Positions 10,776 to 39,291 of a stretch of DNA of 64,000 bases are shown one piece after another. Origin of the DNA: a virus. A program made the translations under genes and the position numbers. The notes under the pieces were generated by a model. That model was given only the letters and a program-made list of their open reading frames with translations. It ran no database searches and was not told the DNA's origin. The stretch is from positions 1 to 64,000 of IMG/VR virus record IMGVR_UViG_3300005265_000001; one strand, given 5' to 3'. How positions within the stretch are numbered: position 1 is the first letter of the stretch; each line of letters opens with the position of its first letter.

Positions 10776-10803
10776 TTGACTTTTGATTATTCTATGTTAT
10801 AAT
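10776..10803 (+). promoter_or_regulatory. sigma70-type promoter
   Basis: TTGACT-16 bp-TATAAT with TG extension. Confidence 0.65.
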
Positions 10804-22293: not shown

Positions 22294-22473
22294 ATGAAAT
22301 TTGATAAAGTTTACAAAATGTTATTGGAGAAATCGAAAAAACGCAAAATAACAGTTGAAAAATTCTATTTTTATTTTGCTAATTTGATGGATGCCCAAAG
22401 AAGTGGCGATGAAAATACTATTGATAAAATTGGGGAACTGTTATTAAATGAAAACACACAAGTATCTTCGTAA
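22294..22473 (+). CDS. small helical partner protein (59 aa, not in ORF track)
   Basis: GGGGG SD; MKFDKVYKMLLEK...LMDAQRSGDENTIDKI; overlaps the start of 22448. Confidence 0.6.
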   Translation: MKFDKVYKMLLEKSKKRKITVEKFYFYFANLMDAQRSGDENTIDKIGELLLNENTQVSS

Positions 22474-23059
22474 ATTTAAAAGAGGGGATCATTGGGTTTA
22501 TATATATAAAAACTCAAAAAAAGATGGCGCACAAGATAAAAGGGGTTTATCAGAAAAAGAAATGGAAATTACAAATAAAATAAGAAATCATAAACGATTT
22601 AGTTATGTTATATTGGATAAAAATGGTAAGGCTATTGGGGGAAAATATGATAGAAATATTGCAAAAAATGATATAGCGGCCTTCAAAAAAATCAAAATAA
22701 AAAAGGGGGCGCATACAGTAATACTTAATAGGGCTGAAAATTTAAAGATTAGGCGAATTGAAAATGGAGATAAAAAAACTATAAATATTGATCCAACTCC
22801 TATTGATTGGGAAATTGAGTATTTTTTTAAAAAAGGAATAAGAAAAATAATAGTTTCAACCGAAAAATATGATAGAATTTTTAATATAAAAACTGATAAT
22901 ATTTCTGATATTATTGGTGATTATTATTCAATTTTGCTTGATAGAGAAAAAGAATTGAAGAAAAATAAATTAACATTTTTTGAGAATGTTTGGAAAATAA
23001 TCAATAAGGATTATCCTGAACTTATTACTTTTCAAAAAAGGGGTGTTAAAAATGGCTAA
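22448..23059 (+). CDS. HKY-leader protein with degenerate JAB-like domain
   Basis: leader THKYLRKFKRGDHWVYIYK; KIRNHKRFSYVILDKNG aligns with the JAB paralogues but HxH is absent. Confidence 0.65.
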   Translation: MKTHKYLRKFKRGDHWVYIYKNSKKDGAQDKRGLSEKEMEITNKIRNHKRFSYVILDKNGKAIGGKYDRNIAKNDIAAFKKIKIKKGAHTVILNRAENLKIRRIENGDKKTINIDPTPIDWEIEYFFKKGIRKIIVSTEKYDRIFNIKTDNISDIIGDYYSILLDREKELKKNKLTFFENVWKIINKDYPELITFQKRGVKNG

Positions 23060-23372
23060 ATGGACACGAAAATTTATTAATGATTTACCAGATTCATCAT
23101 TTGCTTTGATTTTACCTGGGGGCAAAAAAGATGAAGAAGGAAAAACCAAACCAAGAGATTTGCGGATGTTCCCATACAAAGATGTGAATGGAAATCTTGA
23201 TAAAGATCACATAAGAGCGGCACTTGTTTATTTGGATAGGGCAAAAATTTCCGAAAAAGATAAGAAAAAGGTCTTGAAAGTATTAAAAGCGGCTGAGAAA
23301 AAATTGGAAATGGGTGAATATAAAAAATCAACCATTTTAAGGGTCAATGATATTTATGTTCTGAATAAATAA
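23052..23372 (+). CDS. phage head-associated small protein
   Basis: INDLPDSSFALI..GGKKD...RMFPYKD...HIRAAL motif recalled from phage head/prohead-protease-associated proteins. Confidence 0.55.
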   Translation: MAKWTRKFINDLPDSSFALILPGGKKDEEGKTKPRDLRMFPYKDVNGNLDKDHIRAALVYLDRAKISEKDKKKVLKVLKAAEKKLEMGEYKKSTILRVNDIYVLNK

Positions 23373-23402
23373 ACTGTTTTTGGAAATAGTAAGGAAATAA
23401 AG

Positions 23403-23651
23403 ATGTTAAGGTTTCGTAATAAAACCGACAATGATTTTGAAAAAAAACTAAAGAATACGTGTTTACATTTAATGGATAATTTTAATGGTCTAAAGGATGA
23501 TGAAAAACTTTTATTATTATATGGATTAACAAGTGCAATAAAAGAAAACAACCATGTTAAACTTGATGCTTTAAATCAAATTAAACATTTGATTGATACA
23601 AATCAATGTAAAAATTGTGGGGACACCTTTGATGGAAACAATAGTCGATGA
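23403..23651 (+). CDS. hypothetical protein
   Basis: ORF track, SD present. Confidence 0.5.
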   Translation: MLRFRNKTDNDFEKKLKNTCLHLMDNFNGLKDDEKLLLLYGLTSAIKENNHVKLDALNQIKHLIDTNQCKNCGDTFDGNNSR

Positions 23652-23838
23652 TAAAAAAATGAAAAAAATCATTAAGAAATTGAGTGAATTACAAATTAAA
23701 ATGATAGAAAACAAAACACCTTATGCTTCTCAGTATGCACAATCTATTATTGAGGCGTTTAAAAATAACAATTATGATGAATTGGTATTAATTGCCAATA
23801 AAATGACAGAAATTTTGAAGCCCAAAAAGAAAAAGTAG
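23593..23838 (+). CDS. small helical protein (start probably internal)
   Basis: KKIIKKLSELQIKMIE...IIEAFKNNNYDELVLI resembles the JAB-partner family. Confidence 0.5.
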   Translation: MIQINVKIVGTPLMETIVDDKKMKKIIKKLSELQIKMIENKTPYASQYAQSIIEAFKNNNYDELVLIANKMTEILKPKKKK

Positions 23839-23873
23839 TTGAATTTTATAAATAAATATGATATATAATATTT

Positions 23874-24401
23874 ATGAATTTTACAAAGTATTGGACAATT
23901 GCGGACACACATTTTGGGCATGATAAAATAGTAGAATATCACCCGGTTCGATCCCAAAATTTTAGTGAAAAAATTTTAAAGTGTATTTCAAACACACCCT
24001 TTAGACAGGGGGATATTTTTATTCATTTGGGTGATGTTTGTTTTGGAAATGATAAAGAATGGCATGAAAAATTAATTCAATCAATTCCACCTTTTGTAAA
24101 TAAATGGCTAATATTAGGAAATCACGATAAAAAATCAATAAGTTGGTATTACAGAATGGGGTGGAATCTTGTTTGTGAAAATATAACTTTAAACATTTGG
24201 GGTAAAATTATAACATTTTCACATTATCCTCTATATGGGGTGTTTGATTTTGTGAATTATGATGTTAAAGATTTTGTGAATGTTCATGGGCACACACATG
24301 ATAATAGATATAATATAAAGTCTTATCATGTATGTATTTCAATTGAAAAAAATGGCTACTGTCCTGTAAATATGCGTAAAATAATAGAAAAACGGGGGTA
24401 A
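23874..24401 (+). CDS. calcineurin-like metallophosphoesterase
   Basis: ADTHFGH, LGDV, LGNHD, SHYP, HGHTH. Confidence 0.9.
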   Translation: MNFTKYWTIADTHFGHDKIVEYHPVRSQNFSEKILKCISNTPFRQGDIFIHLGDVCFGNDKEWHEKLIQSIPPFVNKWLILGNHDKKSISWYYRMGWNLVCENITLNIWGKIITFSHYPLYGVFDFVNYDVKDFVNVHGHTHDNRYNIKSYHVCISIEKNGYCPVNMRKIIEKRG

Positions 24402-24404
24402 ATT

Positions 24405-24695
24405 ATGAAGACAGTTGATATGCACATGGTTTTTAAAATAACAAATTTGATTTTGTGGACTTCTTTGTTTTTGGATTTTGTAACTGGTTGGTTGATTATA
24501 AATAATAGTGGGGGATCTGATAGTTTTATTGAATTGTTTAATTTTGCTTGGATTTTTTCTATTTTATTGTTTGTTGCATTTAGGGGGTTTGGGTGGATAA
24601 ATTATAATTATTGGTGGGCTATTGTTATTTATATTGTGTTTTATATAGTTGGATTGGTGTTTTGTGGGACACTTTATGCAATTTTTAGAGGGTAG
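24405..24695 (+). CDS. membrane protein (3 TM)
   Basis: three hydrophobic helices. Confidence 0.65.
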   Translation: MKTVDMHMVFKITNLILWTSLFLDFVTGWLIINNSGGSDSFIELFNFAWIFSILLFVAFRGFGWINYNYWWAIVIYIVFYIVGLVFCGTLYAIFRG

Positions 24696-24696
24696 T

Positions 24697-24772
24697 GGGG
24701 CGTTAGCTCAGTTGGCAGAGCAACGGACTTTTAATCCGTAGGCCATAGGTTCGACCCCTATACGTCCCACCA
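24697..24772 (+). tRNA. tRNA-Lys(TTT)
   Basis: TAGCTCAGTTGGCAGAGC D-arm, arm ACGGA-CTTTTAA-TCCGT, ACCA. Confidence 0.96.
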
Positions 24773-24783
24773 TATAATATTAT

Positions 24784-24858
24784 TCCACGGTAGTTCAGGG
24801 GTAGAACAGGCGACCGATAATTGTCATGCCGAAGGTTCAAATCCTTCCCGTGGAACCA
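24784..24858 (+). tRNA. tRNA-Ile(GAT)
   Basis: acceptor TCCACGG/CCGTGGA, arm GGCGA-CCGATAA-TTGTC, ACCA. Confidence 0.88.
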
Positions 24859-24877
24859 AAAATTAAGGGGTTATAAA

Positions 24878-25192
24878 TTGACAAAAAGTGAAAGAGAAAT
24901 TTTTTTGAAAGCAATTGATGTTTTTGGGAGTGGAAATCAAGTTATTATGGTTATGGAAGAAATGAATGAATTGGGAAAGGAACTTTGCAAAACATTTAGG
25001 GAAAGTGGCGCACCGATAGATAACATTTGTGAAGAAATTGCGGATGTTGAAATTATGTTAGATCAACTAAAATTGATTGTTGGAGAAAAGAATGTAACAT
25101 ATTATCGTAAAAAGAAAATAAAAAGACTCAAAGAGCGGTTAGATACTTATGATAAATCAATGAAAATTGCAAAGAAAATGCAGGATATTTAA
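24878..25192 (+). CDS. MazG-like NTP pyrophosphohydrolase
   Basis: MEEMNELGKELCK...ICEEIADVEIMLDQL; TTG start after GGGG, downstream of tRNA-Ile. Confidence 0.8.
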   Translation: MTKSEREIFLKAIDVFGSGNQVIMVMEEMNELGKELCKTFRESGAPIDNICEEIADVEIMLDQLKLIVGEKNVTYYRKKKIKRLKERLDTYDKSMKIAKKMQDI

Positions 25193-25194
25193 AA

Positions 25195-25569
25195 ATGAAT
25201 CTTGATTATTTGTTAATTATTATTTGGTTACATTTTTTTGCGGATTTTCTTTTTCAATATGATAGAATGGCAATTGAAAAAGGTCATAATTGGAAGTATC
25301 TATTTTTTCATGGTGAGATTTATACAGCAACTTTTTTACTTTTTAATCCCATTTATGCGGTTGTAAATGGAATTTTACATATTGTGGTCGATTTTGCAAC
25401 TTCAAAACTTATAACTTATTTTTCCACAAATAATCAAAGACATTGGTTTTTTGTGACAATTGGAATGGATCAAGCCATTCATTTCACTTGTTTAATTATG
25501 TCTTTTTTCATTTTGAATATAATTTATCCAAACATTCAATGGCTATTTTTTCTAAAATATTTTGGGTAG
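25195..25569 (+). CDS. DUF3307-like membrane protein (second copy)
   Basis: HFFADFLFQ, HGEIY, HIVVDF, DQAIH. Confidence 0.8.
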   Translation: MNLDYLLIIIWLHFFADFLFQYDRMAIEKGHNWKYLFFHGEIYTATFLLFNPIYAVVNGILHIVVDFATSKLITYFSTNNQRHWFFVTIGMDQAIHFTCLIMSFFILNIIYPNIQWLFFLKYFG

Positions 25570-25572
25570 AGG

Positions 25573-25601
25573 TTGATTTTTTGAAAAAAGTGTGGTATAA
25601 C
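25573..25601 (+). promoter_or_regulatory. sigma70-type promoter of the RNA + TerD-like cassette
   Basis: TTGATT-17 bp-TATAAC with TG extension; RNA unit 1 begins 14 nt downstream. Confidence 0.7.
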
Positions 25602-25614
25602 ATATACATGATTA

Positions 25615-25682
25615 ATTGACAAAAGGAAAAGTTACTTAAACCAACAGGCCAACACCCTGTTTTTGATCACTTTTCCGTCAAT
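25615..25682 (+). ncRNA. structured RNA unit 1 with anticodon-like hairpin (loop CC-AAC-AC)
   Basis: ATTGAC/GTCAAT stem, AAAA bulge, GGAAAAGT/ACTTTTCC stem, TACTT, inner AACAGG-CCAACAC-CCTGTT. Confidence 0.7.
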
Positions 25683-25710
25683 ACTAAAAAATTGAAGAGG
25701 ATAAGAATTA

Positions 25711-25773
25711 ATGGCAAAAGAATGAGTTACTTAAAAAATGAATCTGTTAAATTCAAATTTACTCATTCGCCAT
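25711..25773 (+). ncRNA. structured RNA unit 2 with tRNA-Asn-type loop (CT-GTT-AA)
   Basis: ATGGC/GCCAT stem, AAAA bulge, GAATGAGT/ACTCATTC stem, TACTT, inner TGAAT-CTGTTAA-ATTCA. Confidence 0.75.
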
Positions 25774-25819
25774 ATAAAAATGGAGGTGTTTAAAATGCAC
25801 TAAAACATAAAAGGGTTTC

Positions 25820-25882
25820 TTGACAGCAGGGGAAGTTACTTTTTTAAGATTATTTGGAAATCGCCTTTTACTTCCCCGTCAA
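25820..25882 (+). ncRNA. structured RNA unit 3 with anticodon-like hairpin (loop AT-TTG-GA)
   Basis: TTGAC/GTCAA stem, AGCA bulge, GGGGAAGT/ACTTCCCC stem, TACTT, inner GATT-ATTTGGA-AATC. Confidence 0.7.
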
Positions 25883-25912
25883 TTTCAACCTTAAACTCAA
25901 TGGAGTGTCAAA

Positions 25913-27994: not shown

Positions 27995-28005
27995 TTTGTG
28001 AATTT

Positions 28006-28034
28006 GGGGGGGCGTCGTTCCCCCCCTTTCCTTT
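28006..28034 (+). terminator. intrinsic terminator
   Basis: GGGGGGG-CGTCGTT-CCCCCCC followed by TTTCCTTT, 11 nt after the stop. Confidence 0.75.
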
Positions 28035-28069
28035 ATATTATTTTCAAAAAATAATGGGGCATTGATAAT

Positions 28070-28564
28070 ATGAAAGGAACTCACAAGTATTTATCCAAAA
28101 AACGTGTTGGGCATAGATGGATTTACAAATACAAAAAAGTCGAAGGCAAAAACAGAGATAATGATGATGATTTGTCTTCAAATTCTGTGAAAACTGAAAT
28201 AAACACTAAAATAAAAAATATAGTTAATTCCAAACTAATTGATAAAACTAAAAGAAAAAGGATAAAAGCACTTATTGATAATGTCAAACATGATATTAAA
28301 ATTGCGAGTGAAGCCATTCATAAATATAATGAACTTAAAGGTTATGGATATAATGATGGGGAAATTCAAAACAAATTAAAAGATTATTTTAAGAATTTTG
28401 AAACAGACCATTTTGCCGATTTGTATATGACACATTCAAATATAAATGAGGCCATAAAAAAATATGATAGTATGGTTGGGGAAATCAAAACCTATATAGG
28501 AAAATTAGATGATTTTATTGGGAATCCTACAAATAATCCTAATAGGATTTTGATATTCTTTTGA
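28070..28564 (+). CDS. HKY-leader protein, unknown helical C-domain
   Basis: THKYLSKKRVGHRWIYKYK. Confidence 0.75.
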   Translation: MKGTHKYLSKKRVGHRWIYKYKKVEGKNRDNDDDLSSNSVKTEINTKIKNIVNSKLIDKTKRKRIKALIDNVKHDIKIASEAIHKYNELKGYGYNDGEIQNKLKDYFKNFETDHFADLYMTHSNINEAIKKYDSMVGEIKTYIGKLDDFIGNPTNNPNRILIFF

Positions 28565-28577
28565 GGGGAGTAGAAAA

Positions 28578-29015
28578 ATGGCTAAAAGTCACAAGTATTT
28601 ATCAAAAAAGAAGGTTGGAAATAAATGGGTTTACAAGTATAAGGAAACCACAAAAAAAGATAAGCGGACACCTTTTGAAAAAACGGGCACACCGTCACCA
28701 TTTTCAACATTCAAAAGAGATTTTTATAATGAATATGGTAAAACTAACATTGGAAAACATTTATATGATGACGATTTTTGGAAAGGACCAAAAGAATTAA
28801 TGGATTTATTAGATAAAGTTGCTCAAAAACATGGTTGGGTTTGGAACATTGAAGGCACAAAATATGAGCAAGATGAAAATATGAATCCAGTTAGAAAAAT
28901 TTGGAAAATAAAATTAACAAACGGAAAGACAGATCGTTATGGGTTTTTGACAGCGCACGGGGCGGGAACTGTGAGTGAGCCTCTAAAAAAATATGATATT
29001 ACACTAACTTTTTAA
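28578..29015 (+). CDS. HKY-leader protein, unknown C-domain
   Basis: SHKYLSKKKVGNKWVYKYKE; C-terminal AHGAGTVSEPLKKYDIT. Confidence 0.75.
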   Translation: MAKSHKYLSKKKVGNKWVYKYKETTKKDKRTPFEKTGTPSPFSTFKRDFYNEYGKTNIGKHLYDDDFWKGPKELMDLLDKVAQKHGWVWNIEGTKYEQDENMNPVRKIWKIKLTNGKTDRYGFLTAHGAGTVSEPLKKYDITLTF

Positions 29016-29106
29016 AAAATAGGTTGATTTTTTGTTTGTTTTGTGGTATTATAAGAAAAAATTGAAAGGGGGTAATAAATATGAGGTAAGAATAAATAAC
29101 AAATTT

Positions 29107-29182
29107 CGGGGTGTGGCGCAGTTGGTAGCGCACTTGGCCTGGGACCAAGATGTCGGAGGTTCGAGCCCTTCCACCCCGACCA
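29107..29182 (+). tRNA. tRNA-Pro(TGG)
   Basis: C1:G72 acceptor CGGGGTG/CACCCCG, arm CTTGG-CCTGGGA-CCAAG, ACCA. Confidence 0.93.
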
Positions 29183-29237
29183 GCATGTTATTTCACATCA
29201 TGCAAATCTTCTTTTCATTCGTTTTGACTTCCTTTGG

Positions 29238-29266
29238 AAAAAAGTGGGAAAAATCCCACTTTTTTT
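29238..29266. terminator. bidirectional-type intrinsic terminator
   Basis: AAAAAAGTGGGA-AAAA-TCCCACTTTTTTT. Confidence 0.7.
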
Positions 29267-29278
29267 CTTTTAAATATG

Positions 29279-29307
29279 TTGACTTTTTAAATAAGGGGGT
29301 ATATAAT
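29279..29307 (+). promoter_or_regulatory. sigma70-type promoter of hicA
   Basis: TTGACT-17 bp-TATAAT. Confidence 0.7.
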
Positions 29308-29340
29308 GGGGCCGAAAGAAAAAAGAAAAAGGGGGAAAAA

Positions 29341-29529
29341 ATGAAAAGAAAGAAAATGATAAAACTCCTGAAAAATTACGGCTTCCAAGAAAAAAGACAA
29401 GGAAGGGAACATACAATCCTTACAAACGGGGAAAGGTCAGTTTCAATTCCCCGTCATAAGGAAATCAAACGTAAAACCGCCATTAAGATTATTAAAGAGG
29501 CGGGATTAAGGGTTGCGGAGGTTATGTAA
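29341..29529 (+). CDS. hicA: HicA-family mRNA interferase
   Basis: MKRKKMIKLLKNYGF..KRQGREHTIL...VSIPRHKEIK..TAIKIIKEAGL; ATG after GGGGG. Confidence 0.88.
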   Translation: MKRKKMIKLLKNYGFQEKRQGREHTILTNGERSVSIPRHKEIKRKTAIKIIKEAGLRVAEVM

Positions 29530-29530
29530 A

Positions 29531-29713
29531 ATGAAAAAGGTGGAATTACAAAATATAGTGGAAATTCTCAAAAAAAGAATTGAGGATTCCAGTTTGTCAA
29601 ATGAGCAAAAAGAAGGACTTACTAATTATTTGGTAAGTCTTGAAGATAAGAATAAATACAAATGGGAAAGGAAATTAAATCATTTCGATAGATTGTTGTG
29701 GGAAATTCTCTAA
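29531..29713 (+). CDS. hypothetical protein (not HicB-like)
   Basis: GGAGG SD, helical 60 aa directly after hicA. Confidence 0.6.
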   Translation: MKKVELQNIVEILKKRIEDSSLSNEQKEGLTNYLVSLEDKNKYKWERKLNHFDRLLWEIL

Positions 29714-29751
29714 ATTTATTATATTATTTTAAAAATTTATCGGAATGAAGC

Positions 29752-30153
29752 GTGACACACAAATATTTCAAAAGGGTCTTAGTTGGCGGCAAATGGAGAT
29801 ACTTCTACCATGATCCCAACAAAAAGAAATTTAAACTTCATCCAATTGACGTAAAAGACAAAACAAAGGGTTACTACATTATAAAAATGGCGAGAAAAAA
29901 GGATGATTTGAATAAATTTAATCAAAAATTAAAAGAGATTAAAACAAAAGGGTTTACTGAAAATATAGATGATTTGCGAATTGCGGGAAAAGATGGTTGG
30001 ACTATTGCCCATGAGCAAGCCCTTAGAGGGTGGAAACCAAAAGATAAACGAATTTTGAATATGGAAGATAAATTTGGATATAGAGTAAAAGATGTTATGA
30101 AATATGGAAATTCTGTATTTCAATCAATTAAGGGGGTCATTAAAAATGCCTAA
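29752..30153 (+). CDS. HKY-leader protein with ankyrin-like segment
   Basis: THKYFKRVLVGGKWRYFY; KDGWTIAHEQALRG...DKFGYRV. Confidence 0.65.
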   Translation: MTHKYFKRVLVGGKWRYFYHDPNKKKFKLHPIDVKDKTKGYYIIKMARKKDDLNKFNQKLKEIKTKGFTENIDDLRIAGKDGWTIAHEQALRGWKPKDKRILNMEDKFGYRVKDVMKYGNSVFQSIKGVIKNA

Positions 30154-30481
30154 ATATTTATCCAAAAAACGGGTAGGCAACCGATGGGTTTACAAATATA
30201 AATTACCACAAAAAAAGTATAATTTACATTCATACCGATTTTCAGAAGAAAATGATGAACATGCTGATAAAATTAGAAACAAGGTTATTGATTTAATTAA
30301 TGAGGTTAAATATTACAAAGACCCAAAAAATCATAAAGATAAACATTTATTGCCTGAGAATTACTATGAAAATATGTTAAATAAACGAAAAGATGAATTG
30401 AAAACAGTTGTAAGTTCAATTGATGCCAAAAAATATCCAATTTTGGTTAGGACAATCAAAAAAGAAATGAGAGGTTTATAA
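30146..30481 (+). CDS. HKY-leader protein, unknown C-domain
   Basis: MPKYLSKKRVGNRWVYKYK; ATG after GGGGG. Confidence 0.7.
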   Translation: MPKYLSKKRVGNRWVYKYKLPQKKYNLHSYRFSEENDEHADKIRNKVIDLINEVKYYKDPKNHKDKHLLPENYYENMLNKRKDELKTVVSSIDAKKYPILVRTIKKEMRGL

Positions 30482-30482
30482 A

Positions 30483-31508
30483 ATGCCAAGACCACATAAA
30501 TATTTACGAAAATACAAAAAAGGTAATACGTGGCTTTATGTTTATAAAAAAGAAGAAACACCAAAGTCAATTCACAAAAAAATGACCAAAAAATACAAGC
30601 AAAAAGTTAAAGATATTGCAGATGCTTTTGGAAAATTAGCACATAAAGATAAACCAGAAGCAAGCAAATATGAATTATATACAAAACTTTTGGATATTCA
30701 CGGTTATTTAGAAAGAGGCAGAGGACCCTTGGAGATCGGCAATTTACACCAAACTACAATTGATGTTTTTAAACAATTCTTGAAAAATAATAAAATGAAA
30801 TTGAATCGAAAAGTGGTAGATGACTTAAAAAATATTAATAAAATTGTTGGAACAGATGTTATGACTAAACTTGTAAGTGATATGGATAAAGAAGTTCCAG
30901 CAAAGAAAGAAAAGCCTAAACCCAAAACTGAAATCGAAGTTGAAAATTCTGCCAAATTGAGTGATATGAAAACAGTATTACCAAAAAAGGAAAAAATTAT
31001 AGATACTTACATTAGAAATTTTATTGTTAAAATGAAAGATGGAAAGTTTTATTATAAAAGAAATTCAAGAATGGGGTTTAATAGCAAAAAAGAGGTCGAA
31101 GATATTCTTAAAAAGAAATATGAAATGGTTAAAGACTATCCCAACAAGTTTTTCTTGGGCTATTTGGATATGAGACAGGAAGATTTTGCTAAATTGCCTG
31201 ATAAAGAAAAGAAAAAAGCCCTTGAACAATATTTTATTCACCAATTTGATATAGATGTTAATAATACAGTTGACTACAAACTTCAAGAAAAATTGGAAAA
31301 AGAAAAAAGTGCAAAAATTTATGAAAAAATCAGAAAGGATAAAGAAGCAGGCAAATTTATTGATTTAGGTTTTATCAATGCCTATGATGTTGACAAGTTA
31401 CCCTTTAAATTGGAAAATGATGAAATTAGAAAAAAAGTGGGTTCTCATGTTTATGAAGTGACTTCAAAAAAAGGAAATTACAGATATTTGGTTGATACAA
31501 GCGGATAA
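30483..31508 (+). CDS. HKY-leader protein, unknown basic C-domains
   Basis: PHKYLRKYKKGNTWLYVYKK. Confidence 0.75.
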   Translation: MPRPHKYLRKYKKGNTWLYVYKKEETPKSIHKKMTKKYKQKVKDIADAFGKLAHKDKPEASKYELYTKLLDIHGYLERGRGPLEIGNLHQTTIDVFKQFLKNNKMKLNRKVVDDLKNINKIVGTDVMTKLVSDMDKEVPAKKEKPKPKTEIEVENSAKLSDMKTVLPKKEKIIDTYIRNFIVKMKDGKFYYKRNSRMGFNSKKEVEDILKKKYEMVKDYPNKFFLGYLDMRQEDFAKLPDKEKKKALEQYFIHQFDIDVNNTVDYKLQEKLEKEKSAKIYEKIRKDKEAGKFIDLGFINAYDVDKLPFKLENDEIRKKVGSHVYEVTSKKGNYRYLVDTSG

Positions 31509-31521
31509 AGGGGGATAAATT

Positions 31522-31776: not shown

Positions 31777-31785
31777 GGGGGTAAA

Positions 31786-31989
31786 ATGTTTAATAAAATT
31801 CTAAATCGAAAAACATATTGGGTTTTCCACCCAGACAGTCCGGGAGAAAAAATACTTGTAACCCGAAGTTGGTTGGGAAGACTGTTTAAACCGATTGCAT
31901 TTGCAACTTTAACAGAAACAATGAAATTTGGAGTAAATAAAATGAACAAAAGGGCGGTATTTGGGGAGTATCAAAATGAAGGAAATTGA
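31786..31989 (+). CDS. hypothetical protein
   Basis: GAGGGG SD. Confidence 0.5.
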   Translation: MFNKILNRKTYWVFHPDSPGEKILVTRSWLGRLFKPIAFATLTETMKFGVNKMNKRAVFGEYQNEGN

Positions 31990-32158
31990 TAAAAAAATTA
32001 AGGAAGTTTTTAATAAAATACTCAAATTGGAATTGGAATCAGTAAAAAATGGAAACAAAATTGATGATAGTTTTCAACAGGTTCCAAAAATGGTTTACAA
32101 TAGAGACTATAATGGTTTGAAAGATTTTTATGGGAAAAAAGTAAAGGAATATAGATAA
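31976..32158 (+). CDS. small helical partner protein
   Basis: MKEIDKKIKEVFNKILKLELE...VYNRDYNGLKDF; stop 2 nt before the JAB gene. Confidence 0.6.
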   Translation: MKEIDKKIKEVFNKILKLELESVKNGNKIDDSFQQVPKMVYNRDYNGLKDFYGKKVKEYR

Positions 32159-32160
32159 AT

Positions 32161-33108
32161 ATGCAAGGGATTGTGTTGAAGGGTCCGCATAAATATTTGC
32201 GAAAATATAAAGGTAAGAATGGGAAGTGGGTTTACATTTATAAGGAAAAAAGGGGCAAATCTCATTCAAAAACTCCAAAAACATTATTTTCAGATGTTCC
32301 GAATCTTGAGTTTGAAGCCAATTCACACCGATTTAATCCATTTGAAACTTTAATTTTATTTGATGAAAAAGGAAATGTTATTCATAGGGAGAAAGGAAAT
32401 TCTGAACGGGTATCAATAGAAAAAATAAGAGATAAACTTGATAATGCACCTATAACTTTTCATAATCACCCTTTGGTAGATGCGTCGTTTTCTCCTAATG
32501 ACGTTGGTGTGGCTATGAATCATAGAACAAAAAGAATGGTTGTAGCGTCACCTAATTATAATTATGAAATGACTTTTGATTGGGATAAAATTTATAAACA
32601 TTATGGCGGCTATAAAAAGTTTTCAAAGGAAATCAATAAATATTATGCCCATTACGCAACAATTATAAAATTAGAAATGGAATCTGAAATACAACATGGC
32701 AGTAAAATAACAGATAAAGAAATTGATAGAAGATTTTTTAGTGGGGTTTGGAGAAGTGTAGCAAGAGAGATTGTGGGAATGGAATATAAACAAGAAAAGA
32801 TAAAATTTGATATGGAAACACCCTATGATAATAAGAAGTTTAAAACAAATGTTAAGACTATAAATCCAGACGATTTATCCAAAGAATTTAAAAAATCAAA
32901 ATATGTCAAAAATGTTAGAATATTTCCAATGAATAAAATGTATGCTTTTAGCATAATAATGAAAAATGGAATGGTTTTGAATATGACTATTGATAAAAGC
33001 AAACCGCTTACTGAGGCCGTTTGGGGTTCAAAGGGTATATATGGGAAAATGAAAGAAGATGTTCAACGCATTTATTACAAATTCATAAAGGCAAAAGAGG
33101 TAAAATAA
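32161..33108 (+). CDS. HKY-leader protein with JAB/MPN-like metallo-domain plus second C-domain
   Basis: leader HKYLRKYKGKNGKWVYIYKE; FETLILFD...HNHPLVDASFSPND = E...HxHx7Sx2D. Confidence 0.8.
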   Translation: MQGIVLKGPHKYLRKYKGKNGKWVYIYKEKRGKSHSKTPKTLFSDVPNLEFEANSHRFNPFETLILFDEKGNVIHREKGNSERVSIEKIRDKLDNAPITFHNHPLVDASFSPNDVGVAMNHRTKRMVVASPNYNYEMTFDWDKIYKHYGGYKKFSKEINKYYAHYATIIKLEMESEIQHGSKITDKEIDRRFFSGVWRSVAREIVGMEYKQEKIKFDMETPYDNKKFKTNVKTINPDDLSKEFKKSKYVKNVRIFPMNKMYAFSIIMKNGMVLNMTIDKSKPLTEAVWGSKGIYGKMKEDVQRIYYKFIKAKEVK

Positions 33109-33109
33109 A

Positions 33110-33274
33110 ATGGATAAAAAGGAAATTGAAAGACTTTTTAATTTACAGTTTAAAGCGGCTATGGAAGTAAAAGATAAAATTGATGATAAAATTCACTTAG
33201 ATTTTTCACGGGCAATGGTAAGGGGGGATCAAGAAAAAATAAAAGAGTTGGAAAAAGAATTTTCAAAAAAATAA
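33110..33274 (+). CDS. small helical partner protein (54 aa, not in ORF track)
   Basis: GAGG SD; MDKKEIERLFNLQFKAAME...FSRAMVRGDQEKIKEL. Confidence 0.6.
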   Translation: MDKKEIERLFNLQFKAAMEVKDKIDDKIHLDFSRAMVRGDQEKIKELEKEFSKK

Positions 33275-33287
33275 TTGGGGCAATAAA

Positions 33288-33932
33288 GTGAAATCGGAAC
33301 GGGCAAATCACAAATATTTACGAAAATATAGAGGCAAGAATGGGAAATGGGTTTACATTTATAAGGAAGGAAAAAAGAAAAGTGGTGATACACCTGAAAT
33401 TAATGCCTTACCCAAAATTGTAAAAGCTGATATGAATAGAATCAGAAATCATAAATATGAAATCGGCATTTTTTATAATAAATACAATGAAAAAATAGAT
33501 GAGATGACAGATGATGAACCCGATACACTTGAATATGATGACGATGATATCAAATACATAAGAGGTCAAAAACCTACAATTTTTATCCACAACCACCCCA
33601 ATTCGGCGTCATTTTCAATTAATGATATTGCAACGGCCTCCATTTTTAAAGTTCCAAAAATAATAGCAACATCTAAAAAAGCTGATTATTTAATGGTATT
33701 TAAGAAATCATTTATGAACAAATCTATTAAAACGAGAGAAAAAATAGTTAATAAATTGGCTAATCATTACATATTACTTAATGAAATGACAGTTGGAAAA
33801 TTCTTGGATGCTATTGATGCGGGTAAAATGACAGTGGAAGAAGCTGATTTTATCCATTTTCATAATCTAATTGAAAATCTTGTTAAGACATTTCCAGAAG
33901 TTTTTGAAAAATACGAAAGAAAATTAAAATAA
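33288..33932 (+). CDS. HKY-leader protein with JAB/MPN-like domain
   Basis: leader; YEIGIFYN...HNHPNSASFSIND. Confidence 0.8.
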   Translation: MKSERANHKYLRKYRGKNGKWVYIYKEGKKKSGDTPEINALPKIVKADMNRIRNHKYEIGIFYNKYNEKIDEMTDDEPDTLEYDDDDIKYIRGQKPTIFIHNHPNSASFSINDIATASIFKVPKIIATSKKADYLMVFKKSFMNKSIKTREKIVNKLANHYILLNEMTVGKFLDAIDAGKMTVEEADFIHFHNLIENLVKTFPEVFEKYERKLK

Positions 33933-33937
33933 AATAG

Positions 33938-33966
33938 TTGACTTTTTTCCCTTTTACTGTTATAAT
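33938..33966 (+). promoter_or_regulatory. sigma70-type promoter
   Basis: TTGACT-17 bp-TATAAT with TG extension. Confidence 0.75.
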
Positions 33967-33992
33967 GTTTGTGAATTTAACAGAAGGGGGAA

Positions 33993-34721
33993 ATGATGGC
34001 GATTCATGTAACTATTAGTGATAAAGATGGAAAAAAGGTGGTTACTTTTGAACCATTTCAAATGCCCAAAATTAAGGTTGGAGAAAAAGTTGTATTTAAA
34101 ACTGGTGAAAGCAGAAAATATGGTGTTATTGCGAAAGTAAAAAACAATGCTATGTTTCATTATATTGAATGTGTAATGTTTGACACTTTTGTTAGGTCGG
34201 ATGTGGCAAATTCAATTAATTGGGATAGGGTTGCCGCAAAAATCTATAAGGTTAGAGGTGGAAAATCTTTTGAGGTTCCAACAATTAAAACCAAAGCAAT
34301 TGTTTTTGAATTTTCAAATGATAGTAAAAATTTTGGTTGGTTTGCCTTTCCAGAGTCTATGACTGAATATATTGATGAAAAAAATTATAAAGAAGTGGTG
34401 GCGGAAATTAATAGGGTAAGAAAAGAAATTGATACTCAAAAAGCAAAAGAAATTATTAAACTGAGAATGGGTGAATTTGATGCTTGTATTATTGATGAAT
34501 TTAATAAACCACCATTCAATCATGGGTTCCCGTGGGATGAATACAAGGCCGTTTTTCTCAAAATGACTTCTTGTCGGAATACAACGGTTGTGGTTTTCAA
34601 AGATAAAGATGTTCTGAATGTTCCCCAAAAAATTGCGGGTATTGTAATTGGGAAAGGGGGCAGAACTATTAAAGAAATACAAAAAGTTCTGGAACACAAA
34701 GTTTCAGTTAATGTTATTTAG
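33993..34721 (+). CDS. KH-domain RNA-binding protein
   Basis: C-terminal VPQKIAGIVIGKGGRTIKEIQKVL (GxxG loop). Confidence 0.75.
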   Translation: MMAIHVTISDKDGKKVVTFEPFQMPKIKVGEKVVFKTGESRKYGVIAKVKNNAMFHYIECVMFDTFVRSDVANSINWDRVAAKIYKVRGGKSFEVPTIKTKAIVFEFSNDSKNFGWFAFPESMTEYIDEKNYKEVVAEINRVRKEIDTQKAKEIIKLRMGEFDACIIDEFNKPPFNHGFPWDEYKAVFLKMTSCRNTTVVVFKDKDVLNVPQKIAGIVIGKGGRTIKEIQKVLEHKVSVNVI

Positions 34722-34803
34722 GAATATATTATTGTGAAAAAGGAAATTTTATACAAGGATTGTAATAAAAATATGCCGGCGTTTTTATGTGGATGGTTAA
34801 AAT

Positions 34804-35067
34804 ATGAATAAATATGGAGAAAAGAAGGAAAAGTTTGAATGGTTTTTAGCATGTTCAATAAGGCAGGCTAAAATTTATTGTAAATTAAACAAAATTCCAT
34901 TCAATCCCAATAAAATTATAACAAAATTTCAGGATGTGTTGGGTTTGTATGGAATAATTGTTAGAGCAATTGGAGAATGGTATAAAAATGATGATTTAGA
35001 TAAAATAATAGAATATATGAATAATCATAATATTGTATTGGTAACGGCAATTCAACAACTTGATTAA
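34804..35067 (+). CDS. hypothetical protein
   Basis: ORF track. Confidence 0.5.
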   Translation: MNKYGEKKEKFEWFLACSIRQAKIYCKLNKIPFNPNKIITKFQDVLGLYGIIVRAIGEWYKNDDLDKIIEYMNNHNIVLVTAIQQLD

Positions 35068-35080
35068 AAGTGAGAGGAAA

Positions 35081-35233
35081 ATGAAAAAAATTGTAATTGA
35101 TTTTAGTGAAGATATTGAAAATTCTGATTGGCTTTATATTAGTAGATTAAAACGAAAAGCCAAACAGGGAGATAAAGAGGCTGAAAATGAATTAAAAAAA
35201 CTTGGAATTAAAATGGAGGAAGAAAATGATTAA
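35081..35233 (+). CDS. small protein (50 aa, not in ORF track)
   Basis: GAGG SD; MKKIVIDFSEDIENSDWLYISRLKRKAKQGDKEA. Confidence 0.55.
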   Translation: MKKIVIDFSEDIENSDWLYISRLKRKAKQGDKEAENELKKLGIKMEEEND

Positions 35234-35513
35234 TTTGGATGCTTTTGATGATGAAATGAAAGAAAAAATGCAGAAAAAAAATGTTGATTTTATAATGGAG
35301 GTTGAAAGAATAATTAAAAAGTATAATTTGGATGAGGAAAAAGTTGCAACCATGATGAATTTTATGATGGGGGCGTCAGTTGCCACGATGTCAAAAGAAC
35401 AATTGAGAGTTGTAAAAGTTACAGTATGGTTGTTAATGAAATCATATTTGGGAATTGATATTGAAGAGTGGGGGAAAAACAATCTTATAGAAAAGGAAAC
35501 TTTTATAAATTGA
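35226..35513 (+). CDS. hypothetical protein
   Basis: ATG after GGAGG; stop overlaps the next start. Confidence 0.6.
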   Translation: MINLDAFDDEMKEKMQKKNVDFIMEVERIIKKYNLDEEKVATMMNFMMGASVATMSKEQLRVVKVTVWLLMKSYLGIDIEEWGKNNLIEKETFIN

Positions 35514-36397
35514 AATTTGTGATATTGGTAAAATCGGAACAGACAAATCATAAATACCTAAGAAAATATAAAGGTAAGAATGGGAAATGGGTTTACATTT
35601 ATAAGGAAAGTAGCGTCAAAAAAGGAAAAGATGAGTTAGATATTCAGATTAAACCCCAATATAAAGCACAATATCAAAAATATTATAATCAATATGCTGA
35701 AATGTTTTCAAAAATTCCAGAAAAAGATGTCAAAGGATTTAAAAATTCCATAAACGGTTGGATGAATATGTTGGGAAATGATAAAACAATTCCACGGGGG
35801 TTTAAAGAAAATCCAGTTGGAAAAATTATCATAAACACAACAAATGAAAATAAAGATGTTAAAGATTTATTGATGATGTGGTGTCATTCTACATATAGTT
35901 GGGGTGGACATGATTTTAGAAAAGCAATTTATGAAATCGAAGATAATGTAGCTGAAAGAAAGAAAATAAAGAAAGAAAAAGATGATTATCACAATCCAAA
36001 AAATCTTGAAATAGTTTTGAAATTGAGGGCATTTGGGCAAGCATATTTTGACGTTATTAAAAATGATGTAAAAGAAATTCAATTATATAGAGCTATTGGG
36101 GGGGATACGGGAAAACAAATATTAAAAGGATTACAAGAAAACGCTGAAATTTCCTATCGTGATTTACCAATGTCTTCATGGACAATAAAAAGGAAAGAAT
36201 CAATTTTTAGAGGAATTGGTGATATAGCAATTAAACACACCTTTTCAACTAAAGACATATTTTTACCACGTGAAATTTTGTATTCAGTTTTTGATAATGG
36301 TGAATTTGCAGATGAACATGAATATATGGTAGTTGGGCGGAATGAAGAAAAACCGATAAATAAAAATGATGTGGTTTTTGTTGAAAGAGGTTATTAA
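35510..36397 (+). CDS. HKY-leader protein with ADP-ribosyltransferase-like domain
   Basis: leader; R-S-E pattern QLYRAIG...MSSWT...DEHEYMV; TTG start inferred. Confidence 0.7.
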   Translation: MKFVILVKSEQTNHKYLRKYKGKNGKWVYIYKESSVKKGKDELDIQIKPQYKAQYQKYYNQYAEMFSKIPEKDVKGFKNSINGWMNMLGNDKTIPRGFKENPVGKIIINTTNENKDVKDLLMMWCHSTYSWGGHDFRKAIYEIEDNVAERKKIKKEKDDYHNPKNLEIVLKLRAFGQAYFDVIKNDVKEIQLYRAIGGDTGKQILKGLQENAEISYRDLPMSSWTIKRKESIFRGIGDIAIKHTFSTKDIFLPREILYSVFDNGEFADEHEYMVVGRNEEKPINKNDVVFVERGY

Positions 36398-37212
36398 TGA
36401 ATAGAAATCACAAATACCTAAGAAAATATAGAGGCAAGGGGGGGAAGTGGATTTATATTTATAAGGAATCTACATTATCTCATGATCCTGGTTGGAAAAA
36501 AGATTTTCCAAAAGTTTTGAGTAATACAACTGTAAAATATTTAAAATCCAGAAAAGATTATGATAAGGCCAAAAAAGGTCTTGATGTTAAAGCGGCTGTA
36601 AATGTTATAAATGAAGTGGTGAATGAAAAAAAGATAAAACAAACTTTATCAAAATATAATCCAAAAGATACAATTGTTTGCGCTGTTCATGCAATTGAAG
36701 TTCAGGGTCATAATTATTTACCTACGGCGTATGCGGCTAAAATATCGAATTTAATGGGGTTCAAACTTGATGATAATATTGTTCAAGCTAATGTGGTTGG
36801 TAGAACAAAGAAAAATGCTTATGAAAGATTAGTAGCCAAACCAAAATTTTCAGGTAATGTTATCAAAGGTAAAAAATATATTTTAGTTGATGATGTTATA
36901 GGTCAAGGGGGAACAATAAATGAATTGAGAAAATATATAGAAAAACGTGGTGGTGAAGTAGTTCATGTTTCCAGTTTGGCGGTTGGGATTTTTGCCGCAA
37001 CTTTGCCAATTTCAGATAAAACTAAAGGTGAATTGATTAAAAAATATGGTAAAAAAGGATTGAGTGAATTTCTGAAAAAATATAATATAACTGATAATAT
37101 AGATTCAATGACTGAAAAAGATGGCCGGTTATTGCTTAATAATAAATCAATGACAATCGAAAAACTTTCAAAAAAACTTGACGAAATAGTTGACAAATTA
37201 AAAAAGGGATGA
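36397..37212 (+). CDS. HKY-leader protein with type I phosphoribosyltransferase domain
   Basis: leader; PRPP loop YILVDDVIGQGGT. Confidence 0.85.
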   Translation: MNRNHKYLRKYRGKGGKWIYIYKESTLSHDPGWKKDFPKVLSNTTVKYLKSRKDYDKAKKGLDVKAAVNVINEVVNEKKIKQTLSKYNPKDTIVCAVHAIEVQGHNYLPTAYAAKISNLMGFKLDDNIVQANVVGRTKKNAYERLVAKPKFSGNVIKGKKYILVDDVIGQGGTINELRKYIEKRGGEVVHVSSLAVGIFAATLPISDKTKGELIKKYGKKGLSEFLKKYNITDNIDSMTEKDGRLLLNNKSMTIEKLSKKLDEIVDKLKKG

Positions 37213-37218
37213 TATAAT
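37190..37218 (+). promoter_or_regulatory. sigma70-type promoter
   Basis: perfect TTGACA-17 bp-TATAAT with TG extension. Confidence 0.75.
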
Positions 37219-37352
37219 GATGGCGGAGGTGAATGGTGTGAAAAATCTTAAAAATGACGAAATTGCAAAATTGCAAAATGAAAAAAATCTTTTGCAAAAA
37301 ATCTTTTTGCAATTATTTGAACACCCCCAAAAAATGAATGAGGATAGTAAAA

Positions 37353-37520
37353 ATGAGAAAAAAAATTGATAAATTATTTGATGATGTAATGAGACTTATT
37401 GTGGAGAAGGCGGATAAATTACCTCTTGATAAATATTCAGTAGATGTAATTGAATCCGTGTATAGAGAAGATGCAAAACAGTTACAAAAAATAAAGAGAG
37501 AATTGGAAAAAATTGAATGA
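37353..37520 (+). CDS. small helical partner protein
   Basis: MRKKIDKLFDDVMRLIVE...VIESVYREDAKQLQKI; ATGA overlap with the JAB gene. Confidence 0.62.
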   Translation: MRKKIDKLFDDVMRLIVEKADKLPLDKYSVDVIESVYREDAKQLQKIKRELEKIE

Positions 37521-38140
37521 AAGAGCGGACAACCCATAAATATTTACGAAAATACAAAGGTAAGAATGGGAAATGGGTTTACATTTATAAGGAAACAAGT
37601 TTAAAAGATTCCAAAAATTCTTTATTTGAATTTGAATCTATTGGAAAAATTGCCAATAAAATAAGAAATCAAAAATACGAAACCTTTGTGTTGTTTGACA
37701 ATAAAGGAAATGTTGTATTTCAAAAAGATGGTGGTGAAGATTACGTTAAATTGGACGGCTATTCTTTAAAAAAAGCCATTAAACGAAATAAAACAACTAT
37801 TCACAATCATCCCAAAGGTAGTTCATTTTCTTGGGAAGATATTAATATTGTTTTAAATGCGGGCCACGAATCAATGTATGTTTGCTCGAAAAAATATGAT
37901 TATAAAATTGAATTTGATTATGAAAAAATAAATGAAAAATATGGAGATATTGAAAGATTCAGAAAAGAATTGGCAAATGAAAATTTAAGAGCAAATGTAG
38001 AAGTGCGAAATAAACTTGAAGATATGATAGATGACGGAAAAATAACACCACAAGAAGCAGAAATATTACATGAAAATTTGGTTTGGAATAAAATTCAGGA
38101 TAGAATGGTAGGTATAAAATATATAAGGCGAGAGATATAA
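37517..38140 (+). CDS. HKY-leader protein with JAB/MPN-like domain
   Basis: leader; YETFVLFD...HNHPKGSSFSWED. Confidence 0.8.
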   Translation: MKERTTHKYLRKYKGKNGKWVYIYKETSLKDSKNSLFEFESIGKIANKIRNQKYETFVLFDNKGNVVFQKDGGEDYVKLDGYSLKKAIKRNKTTIHNHPKGSSFSWEDINIVLNAGHESMYVCSKKYDYKIEFDYEKINEKYGDIERFRKELANENLRANVEVRNKLEDMIDDGKITPQEAEILHENLVWNKIQDRMVGIKYIRREI

Positions 38141-38145
38141 ACAAA

Positions 38146-39291
38146 ATGAAAAAAAGAACAAATCATAAATATCTTAGAAAATATAGAGGCAAGGGTGGGA
38201 AGTGGATTTATATTTATAAGGAAGGAAAAAAGAAAGATAGGACTGTAAAGGTAAAATTAACAAAATATCAACAATTAGCTATTGATAGAGTTAATGAAAA
38301 TTCTCCCGAATTGACACTTGAAAATGTCAGGAAATTATTTTATAAATATTTTATAAAAAACAAAAGAATGGCAGATTATCTTAAAAATTATAAGAAAGAA
38401 CATGGTAAAGATTTGATTACAACTAAAGATTTCTATAAATTGGGCAAATTTTTCCAAAAAAATATAGGAACAGATATTTTACCTGTTTACATTTTGAGAA
38501 AATTTAAACGGGGGGATTTAGAAAAAAGTTCATCTTATAAAGATTTGGTAAAAACAAAAAGAATGAAAAATCAATTAGAATTGGGTAAAGCCGCAACATC
38601 CAATGGATCATTGATTCCCGCACCTGGGGATTTGAGGGATTATTGGGAACGTAGGTCTTTTTATGGTGCATTTCAGGAAAATCCAGAATATAAAAAATTA
38701 TTAAAAAGAGAATCAGAATATTTTACTAAAAAATTAGGAAGAGAGCGTCCTATTTATGGGTATATGTCTCTTCATAATTCTTCAATGGATTTTAGAACAC
38801 AATCACAATATGGATTTTTCAAATTTAGAGTGAAACCTGAAATTGTTGAAAAATATGTTACATTTACTCCAAACAATAGCAGTGATTCAGATGAATTAAA
38901 TAGAACATTTACAAAAAAGAATCCGTATTACTTGCTTGAATACATAATGGATAGTATATCAAATAGGAAAACTAAAATTGGTATAATGGAAAAGGATATA
39001 GAAATTATAAAAAACATAATAAAAACGGGTAAAATAGATGCCCCAAAAGAAACTTTTGATAATTTAGCAACATTTTTTAGAAGATATGTTGAATCACAAT
39101 TAATTGGAGATGCAACACTTGATAAATTTGAATATGTTGCCATTGAAGATTGGAAAAATAATGAAAATCTTAAAAGATATTATGGGTCTGATTATATTGA
39201 TAAAGAAATGCAACGATTTTCTCCGAAAATATTAAAACAAATTGCAAAAGAATTGGGTATTCCAGTTAAAATAGAGGGGGGCAATAAATGA
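38146..39291 (+). CDS. HKY-leader protein with DUF3626-like (possibly ART-fold) domain
   Basis: leader; ERPIYGYM, SQYG, VTFTPNNS, YVESQLIG. Confidence 0.6.
   Translation: MKKRTNHKYLRKYRGKGGKWIYIYKEGKKKDRTVKVKLTKYQQLAIDRVNENSPELTLENVRKLFYKYFIKNKRMADYLKNYKKEHGKDLITTKDFYKLGKFFQKNIGTDILPVYILRKFKRGDLEKSSSYKDLVKTKRMKNQLELGKAATSNGSLIPAPGDLRDYWERRSFYGAFQENPEYKKLLKRESEYFTKKLGRERPIYGYMSLHNSSMDFRTQSQYGFFKFRVKPEIVEKYVTFTPNNSSDSDELNRTFTKKNPYYLLEYIMDSISNRKTKIGIMEKDIEIIKNIIKTGKIDAPKETFDNLATFFRRYVESQLIGDATLDKFEYVAIEDWKNNENLKRYYGSDYIDKEMQRFSPKILKQIAKELGIPVKIEGGNK

Follow-up and report, generated by a model that had tools for sequence, protein, structure and literature searches.

A basic β-hairpin module heads twelve proteins of an uncultured marine sediment phage and recurs in polyvalent-type proteins of its relatives

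Polyvalent proteins and other enzymes carried in phage heads are thought to be the first weapons that a phage delivers, and the route by which such enzymes enter the head is known for a few model phages (that is, through the capsid-targeting sequence (CTS) of T4, which binds the scaffolding core and is cut from the mature protein by the prohead protease, and through MuF fusions). In encapsulins, short cargo-loading peptides on a flexible linker address varied enzymes into a shell of the HK97 fold. MuF-type polymorphic toxins, that is, MuF–effector fusions, were reportedly described by Jamet et al. in 2017. Here we analyse the first 64 kb (64,000 nucleotides; hereafter the window) of the linear 105,897-base IMG/VR record IMGVR_UViG_3300005265_000001, which comes from an uncultured phage in a marine sediment metagenome and has a CheckV completeness estimate of 58%, and we describe twelve of its genes, at 22448–39291, whose products open with the same short segment (the HKY leader, after its first residues) joined to diverse payloads.

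The closest described systems offer several points of reference for such a locus. Phage polyvalent proteins have payloads that include RadC-type JAB, ADP-ribosyltransferase (ART) and phosphoribosyltransferase (PRTase) domains, the families LPD1 and ART-PolyVal were defined on them, and they have been argued to be packaged and injected, with the phage versions being encoded among head genes (Iyer, Burroughs, Anand, de Souza and Aravind 2017; PMC5512222). In other phages, MuF is joined to PRTase and ART domains (PMC5512222, PMC9503650), and the internal proteins of T4, which are diverse and counter host defences, have only the CTS in common (PMC3012670).

A common leader on twelve proteins

The initial annotation had reported twelve open reading frames (ORFs) opening with an HKY motif between 22448 and 39291, and these are real: a six-frame regular-expression search of the whole window gave 12 matches, all on the + strand, all at the N terminus of an ORF and none elsewhere. 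The leader follows the pattern HKY[LF]x[KR]-x4-7-G-x-W-x-Y-x-Y over ~20 residues, has a net charge of +5 to +9 and, in the alignment of the twelve copies, contains invariant K, Y, W, Y and Y and nearly invariant H, L, K and K. A profile built from the 12 leaders (profile A1) found only the same 12 places in the full 105,897-base record (E = 7e-18 to 1e-14; 52–62 bits). When two HKY proteins were compared as a pair, no likeness extended beyond the leader, in which 28 residues aligned at 71% identity (E = 2e-10). For the genes at 30146 (ATG) and 35510 (TTG), the starts used here are plausible ones within longer open frames.

A check that had been suggested at the outset, a profile search of the leader against other proteins, showed that the unit is often internal and therefore not a pure N-terminal leader. 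Among 1.84 billion representative proteins, profile A1 matched 133 clusters at E < 1e-3 (35–103 bits), and a re-scan of these matches located 158 copies outside the window, in 124 proteins. Two to four copies each are present in 28 of the outside proteins, and 87 of the 158 copies lie more than 60 residues from the N terminus; given these internal and repeated copies, the unit is a small module that either heads proteins or separates their domains. Larger carriers contain NUDIX (29 of 52), LPD1, RelA/SpoT, SNF2 helicase, ART-PolyVal, DUF5661 and DUF6321 domains, and one carrier of 2,747 residues combines NUDIX, SNF2 helicase and RelA/SpoT with four hairpins. We describe the leader as one copy of an uncatalogued β-hairpin module of ~25–35 residues (H-K-Y-hydrophobic-basic-basic, a tight turn that contains G, and W-x-Y-x-Y-(H/K)-E), and consider it highly probable that the twelve leaders are copies of a hairpin module of polyvalent proteins.

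The initial view of the leader as a basic β-hairpin on a disordered linker agrees both with its charge and with AlphaFold2 (AF2) models. In the AF2 model of the protein encoded at 37517, a two-stranded hairpin (residues 9–14 and 20–24), modelled with low to moderate confidence, precedes a disordered stretch (24–34) and a confident JAB domain (40–207), on which the hairpin is not packed. With an alignment of 17 extended modules as input, the hairpin is modelled in isolation with a pLDDT of ~94, the invariant aromatics lie on one of its faces, and a short helix covers the D-L-F-K prefix that precedes it; a further helix follows the hairpin in the family found in head blocks (see below).

The leader had no match in Pfam, PHROG or NCBIfam, and against PDB sequences its profile returned only a chance ribosomal protein (E = 1.1). 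A wide VIA-align search with the 56-residue model of the module returned nothing at Z ≥ 2, which the small size of the unit would lead one to expect, and the ESM Atlas gave no usable feature match for the leader alone, for which the structural rows are meaningless at 28 residues. Among cultured phages, neither megablast of 10 kb nor tblastn of the leader or of a 666-residue HKY protein found anything, and a NUDIX–HKY protein matched in its NUDIX parts only, the Mx1 region being without the HKY motif. A pattern search of GTDB genomes yielded no confirmed locus, and a metagenome scan for the module yielded just duplicates of the IMG/VR loci and two short contigs. No description of the hairpin unit was found in the main text of PMC5512222, in a later survey of NAD/ADP-ribose systems in viruses (PMC9503650) or in the literature reached by broader searches, and the module thus appears to be undescribed in the resources searched.

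Other identities were also considered. The KxYKxGKxW signal (TIGR03715) and the cell-wall/choline-binding repeat (PF01473) resemble the leader in G-K-W-Y-Y only, and no leader had an NCBIfam or Pfam match at E ≤ 0.01; a Sec/Tat signal peptide was ruled out because the leader has no hydrophobic core.

Relatives encode the module among head genes

Eleven IMG/VR loci carry the module. In L001, L003–L006, L008 and L009, HKY proteins are encoded between the portal (phrog_12) and the head maturation protease (phrog_1028) or SPO1-type major head protein (phrog_752). The gene order in L001, L003–L006 and L008 (and, similarly, in L009) starts with the large terminase, a protein resembling minor-head or DNA-pilot proteins, the portal and a NUDIX–HKY protein of 800–1,900 residues, and continues with a conserved protein of ~320 residues, a second HKY protein (650–840 residues in this arrangement), the head maturation protease, a scaffold-like protein and the SPO1-type major head protein. 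On the basis of this order, the hairpin module belongs, in these relatives, to proteins that are made with the head. In L010 and L011, the hairpin stands at the end of a DarB-like helicase.

The second HKY protein has 290–840 residues across the loci, matches no family and is encoded directly before the head protease gene. At its N terminus is a sister form of the hairpin, with the pattern H-K-Y-[IV]-K-R-T-G-x-P-G-N-Y-K-Y-W-Y-K-L-P-D-G (L003:13181, L004:13183, L005:13095, L006:13839, L008:5886 and L001:3872). In L003–L008, the two HKY proteins of each head block are always separated by a conserved protein of ~300–340 residues without a Pfam or PHROG match (for example, L005:12174–13088), which is a candidate for the partner of the hairpin.

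Copies of the module outside the window are preceded by the consensus D-L-hydrophobic-K-A-R-x-H-K-Y. The motif [DE]L.KA occurs three to eight times per head-block locus compared with 0.2–0.5 times in shuffled protein, that is, 10–20 times more commonly, and is found at residue 25 of the portal, at residue 27 of the capsid protein, directly before hairpins and near the C termini of other head-block proteins; in the SPO1 capsid protein, D-A-L-N-K-A-L occupies roughly the corresponding position. Going by this motif enrichment only, [DE]-L-x-K-A may be a head-protease site common to the substrates of that enzyme. The suggestion in the initial annotation that K-S or K-G just before several leaders may mark a protease site has a parallel in relatives, which have [DE]-L-x-K-[AS] directly before HKY and near the N termini of portal and capsid, but just two or three of the 12 window copies keep a possible site. 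A comparable prefix is present at 32161 (I-V-L-K-G), 35510 (I-L-V-K-S) and perhaps 28578 (M-A-K-S), and the remaining leaders start 2–6 residues before H.

Selection on the peptide and possible recombination at the DNA

Six of the leaders (32161, 33288, 35510, 36397, 37517 and 38146) share 63 nt of DNA at 76–94% identity; this stretch is sharply bounded, and outside it the flanks fall to random identity. Across 21 codons of these six closest leaders, dN is 0.09 compared with a dS of 0.65, and in the remaining six the DNA has drifted while the residues have been kept; given both observations, selection acts on the leader peptide.

Sequencing runs also provide signs of rearrangement at the leader. 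One contig of 1,188 nt in run X4, from a 2025 sample, joins 34856–35551 straight to 36412–36903, such that the PRTase payload follows the 35510 leader in frame and the ART cassette is missing. In related strains, GG is changed to AA at 38194–38195, by which the leader G of 38146 becomes N as in its paralogs, and the Logan contigs of all four runs end at leaders (assembly joints with sides of ~20 letters were left out as repeat noise). The deletion contig and the leader change hint at recombination at the tag; the contigs may be chimeric.

The payloads

As had been claimed, the payloads are mutually unrelated apart from one group: with the leaders removed, pairwise similarity is confined to the JAB proteins and none of the remaining eight payloads resembles another at E ≤ 0.01, so that at least nine payload types are present. 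The initial labels held for three JAB domains and a degenerate fourth, the PRTase and DUF3626; the ART label stands as a lead only, and an ankyrin-like payload at 29752 found no Pfam match. All twelve genes lie on the + strand.

JAB domains follow the leader at 32161–33108 (315 aa; leader 32161–32241, with I-V-L-K-G ahead of HKY, and a C-terminal extension after the JAB domain), 33288–33932 (214 aa; leader 33288–33362) and 37517–38140 (207 aa; leader 37517–37588). These payloads have no Pfam match; their alignment shows the metal-site motif IHNHPxxxSFSxxDI (that is, H-x-H ... S-x-x-D), and for the AF2 model of 37517 the top Foldseek matches in the PDB are all JAB/MPN structures (RadC 2qlc, JAMM1 5lda, Rpn11 and Cap3; probability 0.99–1.0, E ~3e-3). 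The copy at 22448–23059 (203 aa; leader 22448–22507) aligns with its JAB paralogs and has a weak BLASTP match to the 37517 protein, but has lost the HxH of the metal site. A fifth paralog, which is leaderless, is encoded at 43453–43962 (+ strand); it retains the metal-site residues (IHNHLxxxSFSxxDI), matches the 32161 and 37517 proteins by BLASTP (6e-7 and 2e-6) and overlaps the start of the virion structural gene 43916–45205. Just upstream of this gene is that of a group-1 glycosyltransferase (42603–43481; PF13692, 5e-11). A small ORF of helical appearance (54–65 aa; 22294–22473, 31961–32158, 33110–33274 and 37338–37520) lies ahead of each of the JAB-type HKY genes.

The PRTase protein (36397–37212, 271 aa; leader 36397–36462) matches PF00156 over residues 137–195 (28.8 bits against a cut-off of 26.3, E = 8.6e-7) and phrog_22413 over residues 48–252 (2e-40), leaving the leader outside the match. 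The last protein of the cluster (38146–39291, 381 aa; leader 38146–38217) has a DUF3626 payload (PF12294, 42.7 bits against a cut-off of 27, E = 4.5e-11). At 35510–36397 (295 aa; leader 35510–35602, with I-L-V-K-S ahead of HKY), the payload is probably an ART, which we treat as a lead only: R / S-x-S / E-x-E can be recognized by eye and the ESM Atlas neighbours belong to the DRAT family (0.92), whereas no Pfam or PDB sequence matched and BLASTP to an ART-PolyVal protein was not significant. This set of payloads (PRTase, JAB fold, DUF3626 and probable ART) falls within the repertoire of polyvalent proteins.

The remaining payloads belong to no recognized family. Those at 28070–28564 (164 aa; leader 28070–28132), 28578–29015 (145 aa; leader 28578–28640) and 30483–31508 (leader 30483–30545, payload of 320 aa) have no match in Pfam, PHROG or NCBIfam, and that at 29752–30153 (133 aa; GTG start, leader 29752–29808) has none in Pfam. 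The gene at 30146–30481 (111 aa; leader 30146–30199) encodes a leader variant in which P replaces H, followed by an uncharacterized payload, and has a GGGGG ribosome site 9 nt before its ATG.

Genome setting and expression signals

The record has a G+C content of 29%, nine tRNA genes and nearly every gene on the + strand. Replication genes occupy roughly its first 17 kb, and a contractile-tail block begins at ~43.9 kb with a virion protein (43916–45205, which matches the virion structural protein family phrog_16120), the sheath (45283–47658) and the tube (47713); the HKY cluster ends ~2–4.6 kb ahead of these virion and tail genes (43916; sheath 45283). A second contig, of 172 kb, carries the same proteins as this phage, and three runs of another study, dated 2025, contain a phage that is ~98–99% identical over 21.5–40.5 kb. 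No close relatives were found when IMG/VR was queried with the tail sheath.

Two classes of promoter-like signal were recognized. Near-perfect TTGAC(A/T)-17-TGnTATAAT sites are present at 10776, 17910, 33938, 37190 and 39586, with a further one, lacking the TG, at 29279; such σ70-like sites are confined to the 10–40 kb part of the genome, and several are inside the HKY cluster, including a perfect TTGACA-17-TGnTATAAT promoter at 37190–37218 on the + strand. Their distribution suggests host-polymerase (early) transcription of the 10–40 kb part, in a host that uses such promoters. The second class, TATATTATT, has 18 copies on the + strand of the record compared with two on the − strand, mostly 30–45 nt before start codons. 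One copy (28034–28042, + strand) precedes the HKY gene 28070, just behind a terminator at 28006–28026; others precede the HKY gene 29752 (copy at 29720) and the operon holding 35510 and 36397 (34725). The same motif precedes the sheath gene twice (45210 and 45245) as well as the genes at 43916, 85267 and 91884; copies were also noted at 40590, 43900, 6359, 16971 and 20907 in the window and at 83898, 85229, 85765, 91846 and 103099 in the rest of the record. It is a candidate for a phage-specific, possibly late, promoter element. If the σ70-like class is early and the TATATTATT class late, the HKY genes would be reached by both, and packaging would be neither proven nor excluded.

Several neighbouring genes were seen in passing. 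Inside the cluster, a HicA toxin homolog (29341–29529; PF07927, 1.6e-13) is preceded by the promoter at 29279, and the unassigned 66-aa ORF after it (29513–29713) could encode its partner; a 242-aa protein with a C-terminal KH domain (33993–34721; PF00013, 1.4e-6) is encoded behind the promoter at 33938. Between 40943 and 45205, inspection by eye found a second family of common N-terminal segments: D-F-D-G-L-T-F opens the ORFs at 41168 and 42117, S-V-I-N-L-N-S-C-x-I-N-H is present in those at 41168 and 43916, and that at 40943 has a similar N/S-rich repeat. Further along the record are two neighbouring radical-SAM proteins (88251–90967; phrog_1802) and a protein resembling the T4 Rnl1 RNA ligase and tail-fibre attachment catalyst (100122–101186; phrog_562, 9e-64).

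A possible docking tag for capsid loading

We tentatively favour the view, to which we assign slightly less than an even chance, that the hairpin is a docking tag, most likely for loading the capsid with a 'disassembled' polyvalent set. In the relatives, the head protease would cut giant proteins at [DE]-L-x-K-A and so release enzyme fragments that are each headed by a hairpin, whereas the phage studied here would encode the equivalent end-products directly, as twelve genes that each specify a hairpin, a floppy basic linker and one enzyme domain. All the hairpins would bind the same partner, which would most probably be a part of the head during its assembly (that is, scaffold, portal, inner shell or packaged DNA), and the enzyme set would ride in the virion and enter the host with the DNA. 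Capsid docking is favoured by the free hairpin on its linker, by the placing of the relatives' genes in the head block and the pairing of their hairpins with a candidate cut site, by payloads that resemble effectors and by the precedent of T4; consistent with this notion, the TATATTATT motif of the sheath and virion genes also heads HKY genes.

Several observations weigh against this proposal. The HKY cluster has the replication and tRNA genes on one side and the tail block on the other. In the 105.9-kb record, itself 58% complete according to CheckV, none of the head genes (capsid, portal, protease or terminase) can be recognized, and the link to a head module therefore rests on distant relatives. 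Strong σ70-like promoters in the cluster (with an extended −10 element at 33938 and 37190, and in addition that at 29279) fit early expression and therefore leave late expression and packaging in this phage unproven. Given that a single tag is enough to load a polyprotein, targeting alone does not explain the repeated internal copies. No cultured phage with virion proteomics was found to carry the module, and nucleic acid would be an equally plausible ligand for a basic, aromatic hairpin.

The last point can be developed into an explanation of its own, in which the hairpin is a small nucleic-acid-binding element that tethers enzymes to the DNA of the phage or of the host chromosome, or to RNA transcripts, and the enzymes act early or midway in host takeover and are never packaged. 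We regard this as improbable, although a charge of +5 to +9 within ~20 residues and a face of invariant aromatics (Y, W, Y, Y and H) would suit it, and similar aromatic nucleic-acid-binding faces are found in small β-sheet proteins. The payloads, and the partner domains in relatives, work on nucleotides or nucleic acids (PRTase, NUDIX, RelA/SpoT, SNF2 helicase and RadC-like JAB), the cluster contains σ70-like promoters beside the KH-domain gene 33993, and repeated copies along a polyprotein would be sensible for avidity on a polymer. The leader did not, however, turn out to be an already characterized nucleic-acid-binding motif, an outcome that the initial annotation had allowed for (no catalogued binding family in Pfam or NCBIfam and no PDB chain matched), and the genes of the relatives are in the head block and not among replication or transcription genes. 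Such a tether is also only partly a rival, as it merges with packaging if the bound DNA is the packaged genome. In a further explanation, the hairpin docks on a common protein other than the capsid, which could be encoded by the phage or be a host hub such as RNA polymerase, the ribosome, a protease or a chaperone, or else hairpins pair with one another by β-sheet into one complex; a free hairpin on a flexible linker is how docking and assembly tags are built. The twelve co-located genes have promoters in common, and the strand–turn–strand Y-x-R-K ... G-x-W-V recalls the oligomerization hairpin of the T4 fibritin foldon, a resemblance only, with no model match. The head-block context of the relatives points to the virion, and we hold this explanation to be unlikely as well.

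The sharp-edged identity of six leaders (76–94% in DNA over 63 nt) raises the further idea that the 5′ segment is mainly a DNA-level recombination handle, derived from duplications and used for swapping or losing payload cassettes, with a peptide that is now functionless. Public assemblies break at leaders, the X4 contig joins 35551 to 36412 and the leader at 38146 has undergone the G-to-N change, all of which would fit. This idea is nevertheless contradicted by the dS of 0.65 against a dN of 0.09, by the six other leaders that keep their residues despite DNA drift and by the conservation of the peptide across 133 distant clusters, and we consider it very improbable; recombination at the leader seems to follow from its conservation and does not seem to be why the leader exists.

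Returning to the docking of enzymes in the capsid, a broader proposal can be envisioned in which the hairpin is a portable, self-sufficient signal for capsid loading (and perhaps ejection) across a large clade of uncultured tailed phages, such that any protein bearing the ~25-residue unit would be drawn into the head, the giant polyvalent proteins being protease-cut strings and the twelve-gene array a free-standing form that evolves by recombination at the tag. We regard this wider scenario as doubtful. Whatever its range, an uncatalogued hairpin found at the front of such enzymes, or between them, in well over 100 protein clusters provides a testable handle on how they enter the head, and a simple sequence signature with which candidate injected anti-defence enzymes can be sought in metagenomes (for example, JAB, ART, PRTase, NUDIX, alarmone synthetases and many uncharacterized proteins).

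Comparison with known systems

Like the encapsulin cargo-loading peptides, the HKY unit is short and addresses, on our proposal, varied enzymes; those peptides differ in sequence, are usually C-terminal and do not form a hairpin, and we use them as a working analogy only. MuF fusions provide a nearer likeness in their layout, in which a constant N-terminal part associated with the head is followed by swappable C-terminal enzyme or toxin domains. MuF, however, is a domain of ~100–300 residues with a Pfam model and a known location in the head, whereas the HKY unit has ~25 residues and, having no Pfam match, no similarity to MuF.

The closest functional analogy is the CTS of T4 (IPI–III and Alt). 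In both cases a short N-terminal segment is common to otherwise diverse proteins, as is observed for the window leaders, and in both there is loading into the prohead (proposed for HKY) and an association with a head-protease site (a candidate site, in the HKY relatives). The two segments have no sequence relation, and the HKY unit is a folded hairpin that can also be internal and repeated. Moreover, the candidate HKY cut site lies before the hairpin, such that the hairpin would stay on the mature protein, and packaging by the CTS has been demonstrated, whereas HKY loading is inferred from genes and models.

With polyvalent proteins, the HKY proteins have a domain vocabulary in common (ART, RadC-type JAB, PRTase, NUDIX, SNF2 helicase and LPD1), the hairpin occurs within proteins that bear LPD1 and ART-PolyVal, and the relatives are encoded among head genes. 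The related proteins P0001–P0005 and L005:6317–12004 have the several disparate domains by which polyvalent proteins are defined. The window proteins, in contrast, each carry the hairpin and one payload instead of two or more disparate domains per polypeptide and, because this set is split over twelve genes with one payload per protein, it is not polyvalent by definition; the window proteins are best described as a disassembled polyvalent set that is evolutionarily tied to polyvalent proteins.

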